NCBI GenBank assembly: GCA_963664875.1
Contig: OY761611.1
Span: 1,248,001 to 1,312,000, forward strand
DNA: 64,000 bases
Reading direction: 5' to 3'
Origin: Candidatus Kapaibacterium sp.
GTDB lineage: Bacteria; Bacteroidota; Ignavibacteria; Kapaibacteriales; UBA2268
The translations under genes were made by a program, and so were the position numbers. Below are positions 7,846 through 18,241 of this stretch, one piece after another. The notes under the pieces are model-generated. The model saw only the letters and a program-made list of their open reading frames with translations. It did no database searches and was not told where the DNA came from. The first letter of the stretch is position 1; each line of letters begins with the position of its first letter.

Positions 7846-7873
7846 AAAGCTGCCCGAAAAAATCCGAGCAGCC
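7846..7873. terminator. Putative terminator between ptsI and the rhodanese gene
   Basis: GCTGCCCG...CGAGCAGC imperfect stem with an adjacent A-run (U-tract on the minus strand). Confidence 0.5.
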
Positions 7874-7904
7874 TATAAAAACTTAATATCATAAAGTAAT
7901 GAGC

Positions 7905-8918
7905 TTATTCAGTTACTTTGGGATATTCATAAGATTCTTTAGATTCATCCCAAACAGTAAGTTTACCTGCAACCATTTTGTCGTAAATCATTGCATTTGC
8001 ACCATAAAGAAGTGATTTTGCATTATAACCTAATACCTGAAGGTATGCTGCTATATAAGCACTTGTTTGGCCAGTGTAGCAATAAACAACAACTTCTTTA
8101 TCTGTAGGTAATGTTTTCAAATCGTTGGAGAACATCAAGCTTTCGCCCGGTGTATATTGAATAGCACCTGCAACGTGTCCCGGATCAGTATAATGTGCCA
8201 ATGACCAATAATTTACGATATAGTATTTTGACAAATCAAGGTATAGATTAGCATTCGTAATTTTGGCAACATCGAAGCCTGCAGCTAAAGCAGCTTCTAC
8301 TCTTGCTCTAAGAATTTCAGGACCGGTTTTTTTGCCTGTATTCAAAGTAGGAAGTTTGCCTGCAGCAGCTTTTGGAGTTTCTGTGCTTGTGAAATCTTCG
8401 GCTCTTGAGTTTCCGATGTTTTTGTTCCAAACGTTAACTGCATTTTCTTTATTCCAAGAAGACATACCCCATTTCAAAGAAGAAACTTTTGTGTGTCCCA
8501 TCATTCTCAATAAGGATGCACCATAAGCAGCAGTTTGACCTGAGTAACATACAATTACGATATCAGTATATTGTGATTCGTCTAAGCCTTCAACATGTGT
8601 AAGAAGATTTGCCAACGTTACATTATGTGCACCTTCAATGTGACCGCTTTTGAAGTCAGCTTCATTTCTGATGTCAATTAAATATTGTTTGCCGGGATTT
8701 GTTGACATATCTGTATAAAGAGCTGAAGCACCTTTTACTACCGGGAACTTCAAATTGAGAGTTTCGAGATACTCTGCCAATACCTGTGACTCATTGATAG
8801 TAACAGGATTAGTAGGTGTATCTTCGTCATCATCACTACAAGCTGTGAATGACAAACCTAATGCTAATAACATTAGCATAAATAGGTAATTAGAACGTTT
8901 TAGCATTTCTTTAAACAT
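7905..8918 (-). CDS. Tandem rhodanese-domain lipoprotein (sulfurtransferase-like)
   Basis: Lipobox FTAC; two rhodanese domains (LIDIR..GHIEGA..VCYSGQTA and GHVAGA..VYCYTGQTS); GGAGG RBS. Confidence 0.88.
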   Translation of the reverse strand: MFKEMLKRSNYLFMLMLLALGLSFTACSDDDEDTPTNPVTINESQVLAEYLETLNLKFPVVKGASALYTDMSTNPGKQYLIDIRNEADFKSGHIEGAHNVTLANLLTHVEGLDESQYTDIVIVCYSGQTAAYGASLLRMMGHTKVSSLKWGMSSWNKENAVNVWNKNIGNSRAEDFTSTETPKAAAGKLPTLNTGKKTGPEILRARVEAALAAGFDVAKITNANLYLDLSKYYIVNYWSLAHYTDPGHVAGAIQYTPGESLMFSNDLKTLPTDKEVVVYCYTGQTSAYIAAYLQVLGYNAKSLLYGANAMIYDKMVAGKLTVWDESKESYEYPKVTE

Positions 8919-8960: not shown

Positions 8961-10316
8961 CTATTTAACACCCCACGAAGCAGGCAATTTATCATCAACG
9001 GCAACGTGTTCGGTTGATTTCAATTCCCAATCTTCTTTCAAATCAGATTTGAACAAATACAAATCTTTGTTTCTGAGGCTGTCGCCTTCTTTTATAATAT
9101 GGCACGCATCATAACATGGTTTACCATCAGCAGGTGAACACTGTGCTGTTACTGTTCTGATATTATGAGGCGATGTATAATTATAAATTGGGAAAGCATC
9201 AAAATTAGCAAGTTTAGATTCACCATATTCTTTCCAGCTGTCAGGAGCCATAAGACTTCTTCTTACTAGAACCATTTTGCCCGGTCTGACATCTTGAATC
9301 GGATTGACACCTATTTTGTAGTCAAGATATGAAGGAACTCTTGCACCTTCACCATGAATGTGGCAGCTTCCGCAATTGTTATATGGTTGCGAGTGGCAAA
9401 CATAACAATTCAAATCATTGATATGCATCGAATGGTATTTATTTGCCTTTTCGAGACTACCATGGCAATCTGTACACTGAGGCAAATTAGGATCGTTGTA
9501 ACGGGTTTCATATTTGTTGCCGTCGCCGTGCATTTCTTGAGTGCCATGACATGCAAGACAATCAAATTTCATTTTTTCGAAGTGGATATCAACTTTTGTT
9601 CCCGGTGCCATTCCAAGATATGCGTGACCGCCTCGGCTTGAGTGACAAGCAACACAAGTATTAGTCATATCCGGTTTTCTGACGAAATTGTGTCCGTCTA
9701 TCAAACCGCCACCACCGGCAGGTGGTCTATTTATGTGACATTCGCCGCAGGTACCGTGGCATCTGGCACAGTTGAAATCATAACCGTGTTTCAGGTCATC
9801 AGGAAGCTGGTCAAACTCATGAGAGCCTGCAAGCCCGTATCTTGTTGTTACTTTTCTTTTTTGTCCCCACCCATTAACATGGATGCTGGTTAGAGCATTG
9901 TGCGATTTTGTAGGGTGGCACTCAGCACACTTATCCATAGCAACGTGTGAAGGAGCGCTAATAAAGTCACCAGAGTGAGCTTTAACCTTGTCATTTGTGC
10001 CTTCAACACCATTATGGCAATAAGTACAACCAAGTTTGTAGTGCTTAGATTGTTTGAATTTTTGATAACCCGAACCTCCAAGATAAACTCTGTCATAAGG
10101 TTCGATATGAACAACATCGCCGCTACAACCTCCTGCAACCTCTCCGGTATCAGGTGAATACACTGCTTTTAGCAATTCATAGTCTGCGTGGCAGCTTTCG
10201 CAGGTGCTGAGCACTTCAGTTTTGTCGATTGGTGTAGTATCTTCGTCATCGCTACAAGCTGAAATGACAGAAAGAGATACACTAATCAGTAATAAGAATA
10301 ATAGCCTTTTTTTCAT
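8961..10316 (-). CDS. Multiheme c-type cytochrome lipoprotein (10 CxxCH + 1 CxxxCH) with a non-heme GGCSG motif
   Basis: Lipobox ISAC; heme motifs counted manually; start MKKRL follows a GGAG RBS. Confidence 0.9.
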   Translation of the reverse strand: MKKRLLFLLLISVSLSVISACSDDEDTTPIDKTEVLSTCESCHADYELLKAVYSPDTGEVAGGCSGDVVHIEPYDRVYLGGSGYQKFKQSKHYKLGCTYCHNGVEGTNDKVKAHSGDFISAPSHVAMDKCAECHPTKSHNALTSIHVNGWGQKRKVTTRYGLAGSHEFDQLPDDLKHGYDFNCARCHGTCGECHINRPPAGGGGLIDGHNFVRKPDMTNTCVACHSSRGGHAYLGMAPGTKVDIHFEKMKFDCLACHGTQEMHGDGNKYETRYNDPNLPQCTDCHGSLEKANKYHSMHINDLNCYVCHSQPYNNCGSCHIHGEGARVPSYLDYKIGVNPIQDVRPGKMVLVRRSLMAPDSWKEYGESKLANFDAFPIYNYTSPHNIRTVTAQCSPADGKPCYDACHIIKEGDSLRNKDLYLFKSDLKEDWELKSTEHVAVDDKLPASWGVK

Positions 10317-10347
10317 GGCGTACTCCAATATATATTACCCATGTGAA

Positions 10348-12456
10348 TTATTTCGGGTTATGACAATCTGAGCAATATTGATTCAAAATATCTTTATCCA
10401 AACCGCCAGGGTGAATAAATGTGTTTGCATTTAAACTATCCGCCAAAGGTTTTCCGGCAACAAGTTTGGTAGTAATAGTATGGCATAAATTGCAATCATT
10501 GCTCAAAACCTCTCCTGCTTTATTCACGTGATTACCGTCATGGCATCTGAAACACCCTTTGCTGTATAGGTGCGATTCGTGATTAGCATAAACTTTCCAA
10601 TTTGCATTCATCTCAGGGAAATAGTTTTTGAGGTAAATTGCATTCAATTCAATTATAGCCAGATTTAATTCATCTCGCATATCTATAGGAACGTTTGGAT
10701 AATTCTCTTTATAATATTTAGTCAAAGCATTTTTGATTTCCTCAATCGAATTTTCTCTTGATTTCAAAGATTCTAATACTCTAACGCCAATTTTTTTGAT
10801 ATTCGGCAATTTTGAATTTATTTTGTCATAAGCCATATAGGCATTTATTGTCTGATATGGGTCGTTATAAACATGCGACGGCCTATTGTGGCAGTCTATA
10901 CAGTCAAATTTCTTAAATTGAGCAGTTGGTGATATTTGCTTGCCTGTCAATCTATAGACTGTTTCTTTTCCGTCAGTTTTTGATATAGCTTTTACTAAAG
11001 GAATCGCATCATCCGGGTTATCTGGTTCGATATAAAGAATATCTTTGCTTATTCCCATGTGATAGTGAATGCCGGAACTGATACCGATTTCTCTGTTACC
11101 ACCACCTACTTTCATAGTTAGTGTGATACTATAGTGAGTATTTTCTTCGTCAGAGAGGAAATAATCACGCTTGAAAGATTTTTGTTCGTAATATTTTTCT
11201 TCCCAGTGGCATTTTTTACATGCTTCGGGAGACGGTCTCAAATATGTTGTAGGAGCTCCTAATGGCTTTTCATAACTGTCAGTAATGGTCATATATACCT
11301 GTGGCAAGCCGCTAAGTCTGTTTTGATCCCAAAACGAACTTTTTTCAGTGAAGTGGCAATCCACACATGCAATCTTAGAGTGCGGAGAAGATGCGTAAGT
11401 AACACTCACGGGTTCCATAACTTCGTGGCAGGCTTCCATACAAAAGCTGTTAGATTCTGTATATTCGTAGGCTTTCCTGCTACCGTAAATAGTAGTAATA
11501 ACAATAGTAAATGACACAACAGAAATGAGAAAGAAAAATAGCTGATGTTTTGCTCTGTTAAAGTCTAACAGAGGCAATCTGCGTTCTATATTTTTTTGTT
11601 TGTTTCTGTTTTCGTTTAGCCAACCAATCAGGATTACTATCAATCCCAAGAATAGAACCGAAGGAATGATAATGTAAGTAATCAGCCTTGTATAAGGATT
11701 GTTTGTCCCTACTAAAAACTCAAAAATTAAGAGTAGAACTATAAACACTAAGCTGAGCATAGTAATAAATGCACCGGATAGGGAGATTGGATTAGTAAGT
11801 AAGCTTGGTAATTTATCTTCATGTTCTTCTTCGTGATGATCTTCGTGTACTACGTGATAACCTGTAAACATAGCTATAAAGTGTTCGGAAGGAGTATTAC
11901 CTGTCGTTGCAAGATAGATATGAACAAACATAAATATCGTTAGGAAAAATCCCATTACAGTGTGTAGCATTGCCATAGGCCATACACCACCCATTCCGAA
12001 TATCTCATCAGGAGCCAGCTCCGGAAACATTAGAAACCAACCGGAAGCAATAATTACAGGAAATCCTATAAATACTATAAAGAAATAAGCCATCTGCTGC
12101 ATAGGATTAAACTTTTCTTTTTCACTAGCATGATAAGGATGCGGTTCGCCGAGGAAAATACCAAAAGTGTAAAACCTTGCCTGCTTTATAGAGCGAGTAA
12201 TAAAATTTCTCAAAGATGGCAAATAGTGCTTTATATTGCCGGAACTTATGTTTAAGATAAAATAAAAAAGATATAGAAAAGATAAGGCTATACCAGAAGT
12301 ATTGTGAGCAATCATAGCCACTTCGAAAGAAAAAAGAAAATCTCCGCTGCCGGCATAGTGCAAACTCATACCTGAAACGATAAGCACTACAAAGATTAGT
12401 GCGTTTAGCCAATGCCAAAGTCTGAGCCAAATCGGATATAAATATAACTTTTTCAT
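10348..12456 (-). CDS. Fusion of cytochrome b (CbcB/PhsC-like) with an ImcH-like NapC/NirT heptaheme cytochrome c
   Basis: N-terminal RLWHWLNA..H..KFNPMQQ..H..VHIYL diheme b domain; His-rich linker; 3 TM helices, then FCMEACHEVM..SPHSKIACVDCH and 5 more CxxCH. Confidence 0.85.
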   Translation of the reverse strand: MKKLYLYPIWLRLWHWLNALIFVVLIVSGMSLHYAGSGDFLFSFEVAMIAHNTSGIALSFLYLFYFILNISSGNIKHYLPSLRNFITRSIKQARFYTFGIFLGEPHPYHASEKEKFNPMQQMAYFFIVFIGFPVIIASGWFLMFPELAPDEIFGMGGVWPMAMLHTVMGFFLTIFMFVHIYLATTGNTPSEHFIAMFTGYHVVHEDHHEEEHEDKLPSLLTNPISLSGAFITMLSLVFIVLLLIFEFLVGTNNPYTRLITYIIIPSVLFLGLIVILIGWLNENRNKQKNIERRLPLLDFNRAKHQLFFFLISVVSFTIVITTIYGSRKAYEYTESNSFCMEACHEVMEPVSVTYASSPHSKIACVDCHFTEKSSFWDQNRLSGLPQVYMTITDSYEKPLGAPTTYLRPSPEACKKCHWEEKYYEQKSFKRDYFLSDEENTHYSITLTMKVGGGNREIGISSGIHYHMGISKDILYIEPDNPDDAIPLVKAISKTDGKETVYRLTGKQISPTAQFKKFDCIDCHNRPSHVYNDPYQTINAYMAYDKINSKLPNIKKIGVRVLESLKSRENSIEEIKNALTKYYKENYPNVPIDMRDELNLAIIELNAIYLKNYFPEMNANWKVYANHESHLYSKGCFRCHDGNHVNKAGEVLSNDCNLCHTITTKLVAGKPLADSLNANTFIHPGGLDKDILNQYCSDCHNPK

Positions 12457-12457
12457 C

Positions 12458-13897
12458 TTATTTTCTTCCTGAACGTTTGAAATACCATCTTAAAAAGCTG
12501 TGAAGAACCAAAAATACAGCAGTAATGCTTAGAAGCATAATAAAGCCGGTATCTAAGATTGCATTCCTTGTGGTCCCTACAACATAAGCGTCGCTTAAAA
12601 TTGTACCGTTTATAAAACCAAATTTTTCTCTTGATTTTTCTTTTTCGTGTTTATATAGCTTTGTCATCAATATTGAATTTTTTGAGTGACACTCTTCGCA
12701 CTTTTGTACAGTTTTTTCAGGGGGTAAAATGTCGTGAGACATGTGCGGTTGCGAAAAAGATGAGTGACAGTCTGTGCATCTGACAGTCTCCCAGTGTATG
12801 GACATTTTAGGGAGCCATTCGTGAGCTTCCTGCACTGTACTTACATCATATTTATCCATCATTGCTTTGTCAACGTGGCAGACCACACAATACACCATCT
12901 GATTTTCGATAAATGTTGTTTTATTTATATGATTAGCAGTGAAAACAGATGCCTTGATGTCCGGAATTTTTGCTATATCATGTTCACCATGGCAAAATGT
13001 ACAAGCCGGCGAATCCGGATTGCCTTTAGCGAGTGCTTTGCCGTGTATGCTCATTTCATATTCGTGAGCAACTGAGATATGGCATTTACCACATACTTTA
13101 GATATTTTTGACTTATGAACTGTCGAATTTGGAGAAGAAGATTTTTGCAAATCATGAGTACCGTGGCAATCAATACATGTAGCTGCATTTTGATTGCCTG
13201 ACATCAACTGGCTACCATGCACACTTTTTTCGTAATTCACTAAGGATTTTGAGTGTGATGTCTGATTTTCTGACTTGATATGGCAGCTGATGCAAAGCTT
13301 TTCCTGATTGATTTTCAGCTGCAAAGCATTTTTTTCACTTGCAGGCGTAATAGCACTTCTGTGGCACGAAATACATGTCGGAGACCTATGACTGTTTTCA
13401 ACAAATTTGTGCTCACTGGTATTATGCAATTTTACCACATCTTCATGGCAAGCACCACAGTAAGCTACAGATTTGGAAGCATGCATTGGTGATTCTTCAG
13501 ATTTTGGACTAACAACCTGATGAGTCCCGTGACAAGCCTTGCAATCATTTAGCTTAGCATAATCTTTGTGATTTTTATTTTGCATAGCCGCATGAAAAAG
13601 ATGTTTTTTAGCAGCATCTGTATGGCATGATGCACAATCGATTGGCTTTATATTTTCAGCATGCGGGACATCCTCTGCATTGAAGCCTTTGTGGCAATCA
13701 ACACATTTTAACTTACTATGCGGAGAATTAGCCAAATCAGCAGCTTTCACATAAAGCGAAATCTCTTTGCCATTTTTCTCCATAGAAATGTCTTTATCCG
13801 AGTGACATTCCATACATAGTTCTTCAGCAGAAGCAGATAGTCCCAAGCCGACAACTAAAATCAGGGCTGTAAACATCAGGAGAAAATAATTTTTCAT
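12458..13897 (-). CDS. 13-heme c-type cytochrome with C-terminal membrane anchor (CbcA-like)
   Basis: Signal peptide; 13 CxxCH; C-terminal YVVGTTRN..TM helix..H..LR; stop codon 1 nt before the cytochrome b gene; ORF track start 13909. Confidence 0.88.
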   Translation of the reverse strand: MKNYFLLMFTALILVVGLGLSASAEELCMECHSDKDISMEKNGKEISLYVKAADLANSPHSKLKCVDCHKGFNAEDVPHAENIKPIDCASCHTDAAKKHLFHAAMQNKNHKDYAKLNDCKACHGTHQVVSPKSEESPMHASKSVAYCGACHEDVVKLHNTSEHKFVENSHRSPTCISCHRSAITPASEKNALQLKINQEKLCISCHIKSENQTSHSKSLVNYEKSVHGSQLMSGNQNAATCIDCHGTHDLQKSSSPNSTVHKSKISKVCGKCHISVAHEYEMSIHGKALAKGNPDSPACTFCHGEHDIAKIPDIKASVFTANHINKTTFIENQMVYCVVCHVDKAMMDKYDVSTVQEAHEWLPKMSIHWETVRCTDCHSSFSQPHMSHDILPPEKTVQKCEECHSKNSILMTKLYKHEKEKSREKFGFINGTILSDAYVVGTTRNAILDTGFIMLLSITAVFLVLHSFLRWYFKRSGRK

Positions 13898-13909
13898 GAC
13901 ATCATCCAT

Positions 13910-14364: not shown

Positions 14365-14958
14365 ATGAAATTGAAAAAAGTGATTTTCGGATTTATCGCT
14401 GTTGCCACCATGGCAGGTGTTGTTTCTACAATATCGCTAACTTCGGTAACAAGCAAAGAAAGCCCTAAGTACATCGGTGCAGACAAATGTAAAATGTGCC
14501 ACAAAGGCGAAAAAAAAGGTGACCAGTTTAAAATATGGTCAGAAGGTGCACACGCAAAAGCTTATGCTACTTTGGCAAGTGCAGAATCTAAAGCTATCGC
14601 TGCAAAAATGGGAATAGCTGACCCTCAAAAAGCTCCTGAGTGTTTGAAATGCCACGTAACAGCCTACAATGTAGATGCTTCTCTCAAAGAAAAAACATTG
14701 AAATTAGAAGAAGGTGTTTCGTGCGAATCTTGCCACGGTCCCGGTTCTGAGTATAAAAATATGACTGTGATGAAAGACATTAGTTTAGGTAAAATCGATG
14801 GTGCTGACTTAGGCTTCAAACAGCAAACTGCAGAACTTTGCAAGCAGTGCCACAACGAAGAATCACCTACATACAAAGAATTCAAATTTGAAGAAAGAGT
14901 TAAAGAAATTGCACATCCGATGCCGGATGCTTATAAAAAGGAAAAAGGATATAAATAA
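14365..14958 (+). CDS. Tetraheme c-type cytochrome (cytochrome c554-like)
   Basis: YIGADKCKMCH..W..GAHAKAY..CLKCH..EGVSCESCHGPGS..CKQCH; N-terminal signal/anchor; AGGAGG RBS. Confidence 0.9.
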   Translation: MKLKKVIFGFIAVATMAGVVSTISLTSVTSKESPKYIGADKCKMCHKGEKKGDQFKIWSEGAHAKAYATLASAESKAIAAKMGIADPQKAPECLKCHVTAYNVDASLKEKTLKLEEGVSCESCHGPGSEYKNMTVMKDISLGKIDGADLGFKQQTAELCKQCHNEESPTYKEFKFEERVKEIAHPMPDAYKKEKGYK

Positions 14959-15016
14959 GATATTGATTGTATGAAGCAATCATACTTTTTTTCCATAACT
15001 ATTTTTGGAGGTCATA

Positions 15017-16033
15017 GTGAAAAAAACTATCCAAATGCTTTCGATGCTACTTGTGCTGGTAGTATTGGGAGGAATGTTCTCAGCTTGCGAAGGTCCGGAA
15101 GGTCCGGAAGGTCCGGCTGGGAAAACAGGACAAAATGCTCTTGCAACATGTGACAATTGTCACGACGTTAGTACTGATTTGAAAGCAAGAATGCTTCAGT
15201 ACGCAAAATCTACTCACGCGTTAGGTGGTAACTTCGAAAGAAGTACTGCTGATTGTGCTCCATGTCACACTCACGAAGGTTTCGTAAATGTATTAGCAAC
15301 CGGCGAAACTGGTGATATTAGTAATCCAACTCCTCCGGGTTGCCGTACTTGTCATAATATTCATACTACTTATACAGTAGATGATTATGCATTGACTGCT
15401 ACAGCTCCTGTAGAATTAGCGGTGGGTAGCAAAACATTCGACAAAGGTAAAAGTAATTTGTGTGCAAATTGCCACCAATCACGTCCTTTCACTTTGCCTG
15501 AATTCAATGATTCAGAATTTTCTATCACAAGTTCTAGATTTGGTCCTCACCATGGTCCTCAATCTAATTTAATTATGGCTGCCGGTTTAGTTGAAATCCC
15601 TGGCAACGCATCATATCCATCTACAAACCCACATGCGGGTACTGGTGATGGTTGCGTTGATTGCCACATGGCAAATGCTTACGGCACTCAGGCAGGTGGA
15701 CATACAATGTCTGTTGCTTATGATTACCATGGAACAATTGAACCAAATACTGCTGGCTGTATTTCTTGTCACACTGACGAAACAGAACTTATTACTAAAC
15801 TTGAAGACTACAAAACAGAAATGGATGGTTTAATGACTCAAATTTCTGAAATATTAGTAGAAAAAGGTCTTTTGACTGCTACAGGAAGTGCAGTAGCAGG
15901 CAAAACAACAGGTAAATTAGCTTCTGCTCTTCTTAACTATAGAACTATAGCAATAGAAGATAGATCTTATGGTGTTCACAATCCGAAATATGTAAGAGCT
16001 CTACTCAAAAACACATTAGAGTCTCTACAGTAA
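15017..16033 (+). CDS. Hexaheme c-type cytochrome lipoprotein with collagen-like tether
   Basis: GTG start after GGAGG; lipobox FSAC; (Gly-X-Y)5 segment GPEGPEGPAGKTGQN; 6 CxxCH; C-terminal DRSYGVHNPKY. Confidence 0.88.
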   Translation: MKKTIQMLSMLLVLVVLGGMFSACEGPEGPEGPAGKTGQNALATCDNCHDVSTDLKARMLQYAKSTHALGGNFERSTADCAPCHTHEGFVNVLATGETGDISNPTPPGCRTCHNIHTTYTVDDYALTATAPVELAVGSKTFDKGKSNLCANCHQSRPFTLPEFNDSEFSITSSRFGPHHGPQSNLIMAAGLVEIPGNASYPSTNPHAGTGDGCVDCHMANAYGTQAGGHTMSVAYDYHGTIEPNTAGCISCHTDETELITKLEDYKTEMDGLMTQISEILVEKGLLTATGSAVAGKTTGKLASALLNYRTIAIEDRSYGVHNPKYVRALLKNTLESLQ

Positions 16034-16038
16034 CATAA

Positions 16039-16112
16039 ATGGTCTGCCCTCCGCTGCTAAGCCTAAAGGAGCACTTAGGCTTAGCACCCGGGGCAGTACC
16101 ATATTTTTTTTT
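16039..16112 (+). terminator. Long intra-operon stem-loop / intrinsic terminator
   Basis: Perfect 12-bp stem TGCTAAGCCTAA/TTAGGCTTAGCA with outer CTGCCC/GGGCAG and ATGGT/ACCAT pairing, followed by a T9 run. Confidence 0.75.
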
Positions 16113-16130
16113 ATTCAGGAGCAAGCTATT

Positions 16131-17345
16131 ATGAGGAAATACTTATTACTCTTATGTTTTTTTACGGTAGCATATTTTGCTCAGGCAGATTTAACTTACA
16201 AAGCAAAAGTTACTTCCGGGCTTTTCTCAGGAGCTCAATTTTACAATAGAGAAAACCTCGAAGACAGATTGCTTAATCCTAACGAAGATGCTTACAGATG
16301 GTACAACCGTATAGCACTACAAAGCACTTATGACAGATTTTCTGTTAACTTTAATGCTATTCGTAGTGATTATCTTGACTTTGACGGAGTCAAACCTTAC
16401 TTCCCTCGAAATGAAATTAACGAAACTAAAATGTATCAGGCTTATGCTCAGTATAAGTTCGATGACGGTAATATCAAATTAGGTAGAGTAATGCCGTTTT
16501 CAAGATGGTATTTTAGCTCTGTCGATGGCGGTTCTTTTGATTATCAGGTCAATTCCAATTTTTCTGTAAGTGCTTTTGCAGGTAGTGATGTAGATTACGG
16601 TCTTTTTGTTGATGATGACAACAGAAAAGCCGTTGGCTACACAGAAATTGCCTATCGCGAGCAAAATTATGGCGGTAAAGTAAAATACTTGTACGCTAAC
16701 GAAGAATCTAAACTTGGAACTGATTTGTTTTTTAGAACAGATAAGCATCGTGTAGCTGCAAACATTGGTTATGATGCGACTAACTCTCGCCTATTTGATG
16801 CAGGTTTAGGATATTTTGCTTACTTAACACCTGAGCTTAATGTTTCTGCTAATTACTTACGTACAATTCCTATCAGCTGGAGCTATAAATTCTATTCCGA
16901 ATATATAGACAGAGTTCAGATTGGAATCAGCTATGATTTAGGTAAAAACTATACAGTATCTTTAAAACAGATGCTTGGTCTTGCTGATGGTAATTCAAAC
17001 TATTTGACTTATCTCTATCTCACTCATAAATACTTTTATGTAGGTTTAAATTATTTATCAGGCGATATGGAAGCAGAACGCTTAGCTATCACTTGTGGCG
17101 GACAGTATTCCCCTATGGATAACTTAATGCTTCAAGCCGGTATAGCTTCTGTAGATCATATGTTTGATAATTTTTACTATAAAGACGAACAAACATATTC
17201 TTCGTACTTCAAAGTAAGATACAAAGCACTGGACTATTTAAACCTTGCTGCCTACGCAAACTACTACCACCAAAATTCTATGTTTGATAACAAATGGCGT
17301 GGCGGTCTGACTGCCCAACTTATACTCGCAGGAGGTGGGAAATGA
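16131..17345 (+). CDS. Putative outer-membrane beta-barrel (porin of a porin-cytochrome conduit)
   Basis: Signal peptide (AQA); Tyr/Phe/Gly-rich alternating amphipathic strands; no heme motifs; flanked by multiheme cytochromes. Confidence 0.72.
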   Translation: MRKYLLLLCFFTVAYFAQADLTYKAKVTSGLFSGAQFYNRENLEDRLLNPNEDAYRWYNRIALQSTYDRFSVNFNAIRSDYLDFDGVKPYFPRNEINETKMYQAYAQYKFDDGNIKLGRVMPFSRWYFSSVDGGSFDYQVNSNFSVSAFAGSDVDYGLFVDDDNRKAVGYTEIAYREQNYGGKVKYLYANEESKLGTDLFFRTDKHRVAANIGYDATNSRLFDAGLGYFAYLTPELNVSANYLRTIPISWSYKFYSEYIDRVQIGISYDLGKNYTVSLKQMLGLADGNSNYLTYLYLTHKYFYVGLNYLSGDMEAERLAITCGGQYSPMDNLMLQAGIASVDHMFDNFYYKDEQTYSSYFKVRYKALDYLNLAAYANYYHQNSMFDNKWRGGLTAQLILAGGGK

Positions 17346-18241
17346 AAATTTTTCAGATAATCATTAGCTCAGTCGCTCTGCTATCTGTGGTACTTATGGG
17401 CATATATAGCTCAAACATGACTGCTGACGATACAGTAAAAAGCTGGGAGTCGGATTTGATTTTTTCTCATGCAAAACATGTGATTGAAAACGAACTCGCC
17501 TGCGAAACTTGCCATGCTGATGCTGCAAATTCGGAAACAGGTAATGACGATTTGCTTCCTAAGGAAGAAACTTGTATCACTTGCCATGAGAAAACTGAAG
17601 AATCTTGTGTGATGTGTCATACTAATCCGAAAAATCCAAAAATCATGCCTCGGATTACTGACTATTCTCAAAAGTTTAGCCATAAACAACACATAGACAA
17701 AGGTGCTGACTGTAACTCATGCCATACTGATATTGCTAAAAAAGACAAGGTTGCTAAACCTAACTTACCTGATATGCACAAATGTATGACTTGCCACGAA
17801 ACTCCGGAAGAAACTAAAGAATGTTATATCTGTCATGATCAGGATTATAATCTAATTCCAAAAGATCATACTGAAATGTGGCTCGATAATCACTCTAATT
17901 TTGTGGAAGCGGAAGGCAACAAATGCCAAACTTGCCATCAGGAACAGTATTGTATGGATTGCCATAGAGGCGAAAACCTCTTTAACAATTCTCACCCTCC
18001 TCATTTTATGGCTACTCACTCTATGAGCTATCTAATGAGAGAGTCTAACTGCCAATCATGCCACGAAGGTCTGGAATCTTGTAGAGAATGCCACATGGAA
18101 ATAAACTATGTCATTCCTCCTGATCATATGCCATCTACCTGGATCGGCGAACATATGTTCTCCGGAAAAATCAATGCTGATAAGTGCGTTGTTTGTCACA
18201 GGAAAGATGAGCCTCGTTGTATGGATTGTCATACTAAATAA
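17342..18241 (+). CDS. Dodecaheme c-type cytochrome (cytochrome c3/c7-like repeats)
   Basis: 12 CxxCH with FSH..H motifs; ATGA overlap with the porin stop; hydrophobic N-terminus; ORF track start 17294. Confidence 0.9.
   Translation: MKIFQIIISSVALLSVVLMGIYSSNMTADDTVKSWESDLIFSHAKHVIENELACETCHADAANSETGNDDLLPKEETCITCHEKTEESCVMCHTNPKNPKIMPRITDYSQKFSHKQHIDKGADCNSCHTDIAKKDKVAKPNLPDMHKCMTCHETPEETKECYICHDQDYNLIPKDHTEMWLDNHSNFVEAEGNKCQTCHQEQYCMDCHRGENLFNNSHPPHFMATHSMSYLMRESNCQSCHEGLESCRECHMEINYVIPPDHMPSTWIGEHMFSGKINADKCVVCHRKDEPRCMDCHTK

Follow-up and report, generated by a model that had tools for sequence, protein, structure and literature searches.

In a 64,000-nucleotide stretch of contig OY761611.1 from Candidatus Kapaibacterium sp. 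(assembly GCA_963664875.1; hereafter, the window), a single gene encodes a diheme cytochrome b joined in frame to a complete ImcH, a multiheme quinol oxidase known from Geobacter sulfurreducens as a stand-alone protein. The fusion is a real gene and not an assembly artefact; its parts are known, and no description of its architecture was found in the literature searched. By comparison with characterized homologues, the single chain probably carries two quinone sites on opposite faces of the membrane. The reading favored here, to which we give an even chance, is that the fusion and a 13-heme CbcA-type cytochrome encoded directly upstream would form one inner-membrane complex with two menaquinol-oxidizing exits, one of high potential and one of low potential assisted by the proton motive force.

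Architecture and Integrity of the Fusion Gene

The 702-residue product was compared with domain profiles and modeled with AlphaFold. Residues 7–199 match Pfam Ni_hydr_CYTB at 82.8 bits (cut-off, 30.1), and residues 305–396 match Pfam Cytochrom_NNT (PF03264) at 24.3 bits (cut-off, 24.1). There are seven heme motifs, six CXXCH and one CX3CH, the latter at residue 339. The model (mean predicted local distance difference test (pLDDT) score of 74.7; predicted template modeling (pTM) score of 0.49) contains four plus three long membrane helices in two groups, those of the ImcH half spanning residues 223–249, 254–286 and 302–333. Six of the seven helices were detected by a hydropathy scan of the window's protein, and seven in most homologues. 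Lys and Arg counts in the loops of 56 fused sequences alternate in a positive-inside pattern that predicts a cytoplasmic N terminus and linker and an external heme domain. An earlier annotation made from the nucleotide sequence (the original prediction) had described residues ∼1–200 as a four-helix diheme cytochrome b and the C-terminal half as ImcH-like, with three membrane helices and seven heme motifs; both descriptions are borne out by these data and by the four FdnI-type histidines and heme-1 spacing reported below.

The linker between the halves has pLDDT values below 50 at residues 207–213 and, across the 56 fused sequences, is 17–62 residues long with zero to five histidines. The His/Glu-rich character described in the original prediction is present in the window's protein but is not conserved, and a metal-binding role for a His-rich linker was ruled out on this basis. 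In a Foldseek search, no match reached E = 0.001; the best, FdnI, had E = 3.4e-3. FdnI and HyaC were the top fold matches of the b domain; the VIA structural comparison hardly probed the heme domain, and a search of the ESM atlas returned solely stand-alone NapC-type clusters, all under 0.9.

A stop codon or frameshift at the junction, flagged in the original prediction, was sought in contigs from four of the 21 listed sequencing runs (assembled contigs, not raw reads), and none was found. One contig of X7 spans the junction without an insertion or deletion, two abutting contigs of X6 show no difference, and X1 and X3 gave nearly no coverage. Among 130 genomes of the window's family, 45 open full-length matches occur in 42 genomes from 17 of the 55 genera. 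A lost stop codon is very unlikely because these 45 matches and 55 other full-length fused proteins exist. Junction coverage from contigs only, with two of the four runs uninformative, leaves some room for an artefact; given the distribution across the family and the grouping of the fused ImcH halves in one clade, its probability is negligible. Ratios of nonsynonymous to synonymous polymorphism (pN/pS) lay between 0.07 and 0.46 in all 21 region-by-pair comparisons (seven pairs, both halves), with synonymous sites near saturation. Sequence comparison and modeling together show two complete modules under purifying selection, joined in a consistent predicted seven-helix topology.

The ImcH Module

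In the accessible text of the defining papers, ImcH has three membrane helices, a membrane-adjacent CX3CH motif and six CX2CH motifs (PMC6295460; PMC4251993), and all 71 homologues have three or fewer helices (PMC6295460). It is described as an electroneutral menaquinol oxidase acting at the periplasmic side, where protons are released, with six bis-His hemes and the heme-1 residues E127, H137, K173, Q179 and Y188 (10.1101/2023.05.03.539133).

The C-terminal half of the fusion has three membrane helices ahead of its heme domain, and the set of six CX2CH motifs and one CX3CH recurs in all 56 full-length fusions. Homology to NapC/NrfH over the first hemes is seen in the PF03264 match, in a match to the NrfH structure 2j7a_C (E = 1e-6) and in an NCBIfam NrfH match at residues 311–418. 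The published heme-1 spacing, E(−10), H, K(+36), Q(+42) and Y(+51), is reproduced by E334, H344, R380, Q386 and Y395. Across the 56 fusions, Q386 is invariant (56/56) and Lys stands at the position of residue 380 in 52; all heme motifs and six further histidines of this half are kept in 55–56 of the 56. When the same spacing was applied as a pattern to a Desulfobacterota sample (30 loci), all 22 proteins that it matched had the Lys and Gln, and likewise 22 had Glu or Asp and 22 an aromatic residue. The fusion half is 34% identical over 489 columns (E = 6e-111) to a Desulfobacterota ImcH homologue with the published spacing.

The likeness to ImcH of G. sulfurreducens (GSU3259) thus extends to the helices, the membrane-adjacent CX3CH, the six CXXCH motifs and the NapC/NrfH-like heme-1 site. 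By contrast, GSU3259 is a stand-alone, monocistronic protein of ∼500 residues, whereas the window's ImcH sits behind a cytochrome b in a 702-residue chain and has Arg for the conserved Lys. On sequence grounds, the C-terminal half is a complete ImcH, named via the Desulfobacterota homologue rather than GSU3259 itself.

The Cytochrome b Module

Residues H15, H51, H165 and H179 of the b domain align with H18, H57, H155 and H169 of FdnI, and N117 and Q120 align with N110 and Q113. The VIA match to 1kqf_C has a Z score of 15.5 and a root mean square deviation of 2.7 over 182 aligned residues. H179 and Q120 are conserved in 56/56 fusions and N117 in 55/56. The equivalents of FdnI H169, N110 and Q113 are what we take to be a cytoplasmic-side quinone site; a literature search for FdnI quinone-site residues found no supporting paper.

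The best NCBIfam match of the b domain is the thiosulfate reductase cytochrome b PRK15006 (PhsC), at 171 bits (below the cut-off of 204), and the hydrogenase cytochrome b profile TIGR02125 scores 50.6 bits (below the cut-off of 121.5). PhsC, FdnI and HyaC share the fold and the four histidines, yet they are partnered with molybdenum or nickel enzymes and the window's protein with a multiheme cytochrome; unlike PhsABC, the fusion has no linked molybdopterin subunit, and the TIGR02125-level score and hydrogenase operon that mark HyaC are absent from it but present in an acidobacterial fusion (see below). Over its full length, the b domain is 34–37% identical to four cytochromes b sited between 7-heme and 12-heme genes, and 7-heme, b and 12-heme is the parts list given for CbcA, CbcB and CbcC (PMC13591261). 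The CbcBA preprint, in its accessible text, puts the histidines at three from CbcB and a fourth from CbcA (10.1101/2021.04.15.440034); in our alignment, four are present in the fused b domains of the window's family as well as in the CbcB-type comparison group. From sequence, the N-terminal half is a CbcB/PhsC-type cytochrome b. The host genome also holds a second PhsC-like cytochrome b (L184:4324-8293, G000). An 8-heme PF11783 cytochrome precedes it, and of the two sulfur-transport genes that come next, one encodes a rhodanese domain.

The Upstream 13-Heme Cytochrome

The gene described as CbcA-like in the original prediction ends 1 base before the start codon of the fusion and was found directly upstream in all 20 fused loci fetched (20 of 46 full-span loci, i.e. 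the 45 open matches and one in genome G253, picked for genus spread). That description agrees with its 13 CXXCH motifs and with a profile comparison to CbcA-type proteins of 7 hemes, in which the matching parts are the N-terminal hemes, the C-terminal helix and a WLP motif. A histidine of this helix is invariant in 34/34 13-heme homologues and in 4/4 CbcA-type comparison proteins. Judged by these alignments, the 13-heme protein is a CbcA enlarged by ∼200 extra internal residues.

The arrangement resembles CbcBA of G. sulfurreducens (GSU0593-0594), in which a four-helix PhsC-like b likewise follows a multiheme cytochrome, with a conserved His in a C-terminal helix and a Y-x-x-G-[ST]-T-R motif. 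It differs in that CbcA has 7 hemes against 13 here, CbcB is separate rather than fused, and the 12-heme CbcC lies downstream where the window has 11-heme and rhodanese genes.

Distribution and Origin of the Fusion

A search for fusion homologues gave 89 matches among 8000 scored candidates, of which 56 are full length, including the window's protein; the others are 39–87% identical. Source names are Kapabacteria and Ignavibacteria, with a few labeled Chloroherpetonaceae or Bacteroidota. Nine further genomes of the family have partial matches crossing the junction, and many hold the 13-heme cbcA (cbcA13) and cbcB without imcH. Among the matches listed, none spanned both halves in the 378 genomes searched from the remaining families of this class (166 further rows all scored below 347 bits, against at least 578 for full-length rows). 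No match spanning both halves was found in 301 genomes from the phylum to which a Desulfobaccales metagenome-assembled genome belongs, and no fused copy occurs among the 80 ImcH-type loci listed, from which near genomes may be absent. Two full-length copies each are present in G401, G402 and G447. Broken copies were seen at L130:8725-10893 (G253), with one in-frame stop at codon 185, and at L148:8169-10274 (G478), in pieces lying in different frames; these could reflect either mutation or assembly error.

The fused ImcH halves form one clade with a Shimodaira-Hasegawa-like approximate likelihood ratio (SH-aLRT) support of 99 (39 fused rows and, with them, the broken copy of G253), and the same was obtained with 54 rows. 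In the 54-row tree the sister of this clade is G211 (support, 91); a later tree puts G211 elsewhere nearby. That genome has an unfused run of imcH, 13-heme cbcA, cbcB and a 19-heme CbcL-like gene (L131:4891-11491), possibly the pre-fusion state. A quick tree of 114 b domains needed nine label changes, some of which arose where fused proteins had been truncated and were counted as unfused; the rebuilt tree has 55 rows (P0057, P0058, P0061, L148 and L089 left out, others thinned). According to these phylogenies, the CbcB::ImcH fusion arose once in the family; for the b domains, a single origin was not rejected by the approximately unbiased (AU) test (p = 0.46).

It might be argued that the fusion has no redox meaning and that one arm is a mere scaffold or is decaying, as the long ImcH branch of the window's genus, the broken copies and the many genomes retaining cbcA13-cbcB without imcH would allow. 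Given that the heme motifs, the six further histidines and Q386 are kept almost throughout and that both halves are under purifying selection, such an explanation is very improbable.

Of 80 loci with an unfused imcH (L001–L080, named genomes), 40 have a same-strand cytochrome b gene no more than 3.5 kb away (39 CbcL-type, one CbcB-type), in eight named phyla; with the seed loci set aside, the count is 35 of 75. The loci had been ordered by similarity to the query, and related ones among them are not independent. Rows with an open frame of 1221/1220 residues hinted at fusions of CbcL to ImcH; these were rejected, since on translation L053 and L201 each have a stop codon ahead of imcH. Other ImcH chimeras are single records: Macro domain::ImcH and ImcH-like::PF11783 cytochrome (P0181, P0205) and proteins with long C-terminal multiheme extensions (P0109, P0110, P0128).

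A Second Fusion in Acidobacteriota

A profile search of 1.84 billion representatives gave one divergent two-half protein, P0145, among the best 150 matches; in 21 proteins chosen from these, mostly by length, a b domain was present in P0145 and the fragment P0103 only. The b domain of P0145 passes the NiFe-hydrogenase cytochrome b profile TIGR02125 (143 bits; cut-off, 121.5). A search with its first 400 residues returned 114 matches, 99 of at least 740 residues, and all 99 have six CXXCH motifs, one CX3CH and the four b-heme histidines. Named sources are Bryobacteraceae, Ca. Acidiferrum and Terriglobales.

The genomic context is known from metagenome contigs. In 80 loci, the b::ImcH gene is accompanied by genes for the hydrogenase small subunit (64), large subunit (63) and protease (62); a complete b reading frame is present in 71, and in 66 of these it is fused to imcH. 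The operon order is small subunit, large subunit, b::ImcH, protease (L210:4945-10876; loci L202–L281; proteins P0145, P0245–P0357). The hydrogenase b::ImcH was not found in a separate sample of 301 genomes of one class. It shares the b-then-ImcH layout of the window's fusion but differs in its operon, in having Glu for the heme-1 Gln (99/99) and in a b domain only 24–27% identical to that of the window. A tree uniting both fused groups was rejected (AU p = 0.002; 67 rows, quick tree without a mixture model), which argues for an independent second origin. For this version, a serial quinone loop is the natural reading.

Proposed Mechanism

In the favored reading with two parallel exits, the ImcH arm would oxidize menaquinol at the periplasmic face, release protons and electrons outside, and serve higher-potential acceptors at full yield. 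The b arm would oxidize menaquinol at the cytoplasmic face and pass electrons through its two b hemes to CbcA. With menaquinone at approximately −75 mV and a proton motive force of 150–180 mV, the latter transfer would spend proton motive force and lower the reachable acceptor potential by ∼150–180 mV, to about −0.23 to −0.26 V; its reverse would need a donor below about −0.25 V. One operon would thus supply, at a 1:1 ratio, the high- and low-potential exits of Geobacter. We infer a coupling between the two arms. Whether they work in parallel or in series, the c-heme chains of CbcA and ImcH would have to be insulated or gated because the complex would otherwise leak protons. The two modes are not exclusive, and the same hardware may reverse.

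In Geobacter, CbcBA is reported to give the lowest yield, to operate between −0.21 and −0.28 V and to be induced solely when needed, owing to that lowered yield (10.1101/2021.04.15.440034). Its induction depends on BccR and sigma-54. The estimated limit of about −0.25 V fits this range and the low yield.

Gene Neighborhood and Respiratory Context

The features of the window are collected in Table 1. A consensus scan for promoters was at chance level (30 found, 24.7 expected). Within the divergent cluster, which is kept in three genomes of the genus (L111, L112 and L148), an atlas neighbor of the 404-residue protein is named "Porin family protein" (0.98), a lead only. The rhodanese gene was found in the same three loci, and the pair of 11-heme and rhodanese genes accompanies the fusion in the window's genus only (2 of the 20 fetched fused loci, plus L148). 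In this genus, the exits may feed the divergent cluster and the 11-heme/rhodanese pair.

Table 1. Coordinates of the fusion gene, its parts and neighboring features in the window
Feature	Position	Strand	Details
Cytochrome b::ImcH fusion gene	10348..12456	−	702 residues, reading frame open throughout; seven predicted membrane helices; predicted N terminus inside, heme domain outside
Diheme cytochrome b, CbcB/PhsC type, FdnI fold	11857..12456	−	Residues 1–200; H15, H51, H165, H179; N117, Q120
Predicted cytoplasmic linker, variable in length and composition	11809..11856	−	Residues 201–216
Complete ImcH module	10348..11808	−	Residues 217–702; three helices; CX3CH and six CXXCH; E334, H344, R380, Q386, Y395
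13-heme periplasmic cytochrome c, enlarged CbcA	12458..13909	−	Predicted signal peptide and C-terminal membrane helix with conserved His; 13 CXXCH, two hydrophobic stretches
11-heme lipoprotein-like cytochrome, third gene of operon	8961..10328	−	10 CXXCH and one CX3CH; candidate partner
Double rhodanese lipoprotein-like protein, last gene of operon	7905..8918	−	Pfam Rhodanese, two stretches, 95 bits
Terminator-like hairpin closing the four-gene run	7847..7874	−	12 pairs, T run; consensus scan, 7 found against 4.5 expected in shuffles
Divergent cluster, candidate porin-cytochrome conduit	14365..18241	+	4-heme cytochrome, 6-heme lipoprotein-like cytochrome, 404-residue porin-like protein, 12-heme cytochrome

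The rhodanese and 11-heme lipoprotein-like genes at the end of the operon lend some color to a scheme with the same anatomy run backwards, in which a mid-potential donor in the periplasm would reduce menaquinone through ImcH and the b arm would re-oxidize it at the cytoplasmic face, drawing on proton motive force to push electrons to low-potential periplasmic acceptors such as polysulfide. The title of a paper on PhsABC likewise describes thiosulfate reduction driven by proton motive force. This scheme is unlikely, given that ImcH is implicated in quinol oxidation only, in the accessible text of PMC6295460, and that the sulfur genes join the fusion in the one genus. Assignment of the 11-heme protein as MccSep was not supported; MccSep is described with five hemes, and no Protein Data Bank match was obtained.

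Gene clusters of relatives differ. In nine of the 20 fetched fused loci there are genes for a lipoprotein cytochrome, a one-heme porin-like protein and a Rieske protein of the twin-arginine translocation (Tat) type, and eight of the nine also list a monoheme gene; the one-heme porin-like and Rieske genes are likewise upstream in 7 of 13 unfused cbcA13-cbcB loci. A CbcL-like gene, either of 18–19 hemes or truncated, is present in 7 of the 20. At L114:3430-6656 and in 15 other loci, the cluster lies upstream of cbcA13, and its 400-residue protein has one N-terminal CXXCH and no Pfam match. Searched with the profiles of the one-heme porin and the monoheme protein, the window's genome gave no match; its Rieske match was weak and distant, and no Rieske gene lies within the window's four-gene operon.

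The presence of both acceptor chains in one polypeptide, together with these Rieske genes of relatives, could suggest true bifurcation at a single quinol site, where, as in a bc1-like Q cycle, heme 1 of ImcH and the b hemes would receive one electron each. This was one of the mechanisms offered in the original prediction; it is very improbable, whereas the other two, a Q-loop and a choice between two exits according to potential, remain. The PF00033 cytochrome b and operon-encoded Rieske protein of bc1-type bifurcating complexes are missing here (PF00033 from the genome as searched, a Rieske gene from the operon), the N117/Q120/H179 patch maps to the cytoplasmic side and ImcH heme 1 to the periplasmic side, and each half also occurs alone with its site intact.

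The respiratory gene set of the host genome comprises complex I, two heme-copper oxidases, five FeFe-hydrogenase matches, alternative-complex-III-like and NrfHA-like genes, and a weak match to the futalosine pathway. No match to NiFe hydrogenase (PF00374) was found in this genome, and PF00384 matches at one locus, ∼680 kb from the fusion. Given that complex I and FeFe-hydrogenases are present and a NiFe-hydrogenase match is absent, internal reductant appears plentiful, with no obvious low-potential donor in the periplasm. Such a gene set suits a need for electron exits over a strong outside donor, and the parallel exits were rated accordingly. Also encoded in the same genome (G000) are a Tat Fe-S protein with an NrfD-type membrane protein and a 13-heme class III cytochrome, another quinone-linked complex (L185:9611-12996); an 8-heme cytochrome with a C-terminal type IX secretion sorting domain, possibly secreted (L186:6825-8207); and an 886-residue protein with eight CXXCH motifs and a hydrophobic-looking N terminus, behind a 356-residue protein without a Pfam match at 1e-6 (L189:6417-10147).

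The strongest competitor to the parallel exits is a serial redox loop, in which a low-potential outside donor (below about −0.23 V) would pass electrons through CbcA and the b hemes to menaquinone at the cytoplasmic face and ImcH would re-oxidize the menaquinol at the periplasmic face, so that ∼2 protons would be moved per 2 electrons without a cytoplasmic redox step. The hydrogenase fusion sits in NiFe-hydrogenase operons, the top fold matches of the b domain, FdnI and HyaC, are quinone reductases, and the b genes near unfused imcH and the porin-Rieske clusters point the same way; the hydrogenase fusion and these clusters raised the standing of the loop to that of a possible, though somewhat doubtful, explanation. 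Against it, no strong periplasmic donor is evident in the window's genome (no NiFe-hydrogenase match, the one distant PF00384 locus, no porin or monoheme profile matches), and the b domain is PhsC/CbcB-like, CbcBA in Geobacter being an electron exit. In its broader form, this view would make cytochrome b::ImcH fusions self-contained quinone-loop enzymes evolved at least twice, with H2 as donor in Acidobacteriota and the cell surface or sulfur, via CbcA, in the window's family; we regard this, too, as a tentative proposal that is rather less than probable. If it were true, proton pumping and electron transfer between periplasmic or extracellular partners would be combined in one complex, which could also work in reverse under changed potentials.

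The reading with two parallel exits must itself be weighed against several observations. The pTM score of 0.49 leaves the packing of the two halves unfixed, and the side of the b-arm quinone site is taken over from FdnI. The window's genus has Arg rather than the usual Lys at position 380 and owns the longest ImcH branch (0.94–0.98). In the b-domain tree, in which the deep branches are weak and long, the window's protein does not group with Desulfobacterota CbcB-type proteins, and the genome's own b paralogue is equally distant (34%) from the fusion b domain, which speaks against simple CbcB naming. The fusion abolishes the cbcBA-style induction control that Geobacter keeps because CbcBA lowers yield. 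The one-heme porin-like and Rieske genes that start the operon in relatives could bring electrons in, and the b arm of the hydrogenase fusion must reduce quinone, so that b::ImcH fusions can be serial.

Discussion

Chains that combine a cytochrome b with a multiheme c domain are known from CbcL (GSU0274) and CbcA::CbcB-type fusions. In these, however, the N-terminal c domain is the b hemes' own wire, there is one quinone site, and the b domain of CbcL has six helices. The window's fusion has the opposite order, and what is joined to its cytochrome b is another enzyme with a quinol site, of NapC type and with three helices of its own. The original prediction knew of no description of such an architecture, and this still holds, although the fusion proves to be common inside one family. 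Neither version of the cytochrome b::ImcH fusion was found described in the literature searched, with most subscription journals and supplements outside that search. In their accessible text, no such fusion is described in PMC11492766, PMC9386147, PMC5317093 or PMC13510729, and the CbcBA preprint mentions cbcB-cbcA fusions only (10.1101/2021.04.15.440034).

The question of interaction partners for ImcH was raised in the first paper on this protein (PMC4251993). Two independent fusions suggest that the pairing of a cytochrome b with ImcH is useful and, together with the b genes near imcH in half of the unfused loci, that ImcH often works beside a b-type quinone enzyme outside Geobacter. A natural version in one operon is a direct test object for the switching between ImcH and bc-type quinol oxidases in Geobacter and for the accompanying difference in yield. 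The hydrogenase version predicts a compact respiration from H2 to an outside acceptor in Acidobacteriota, and the fusion in the window makes the members of its mostly uncultured family candidates for extracellular respiration.

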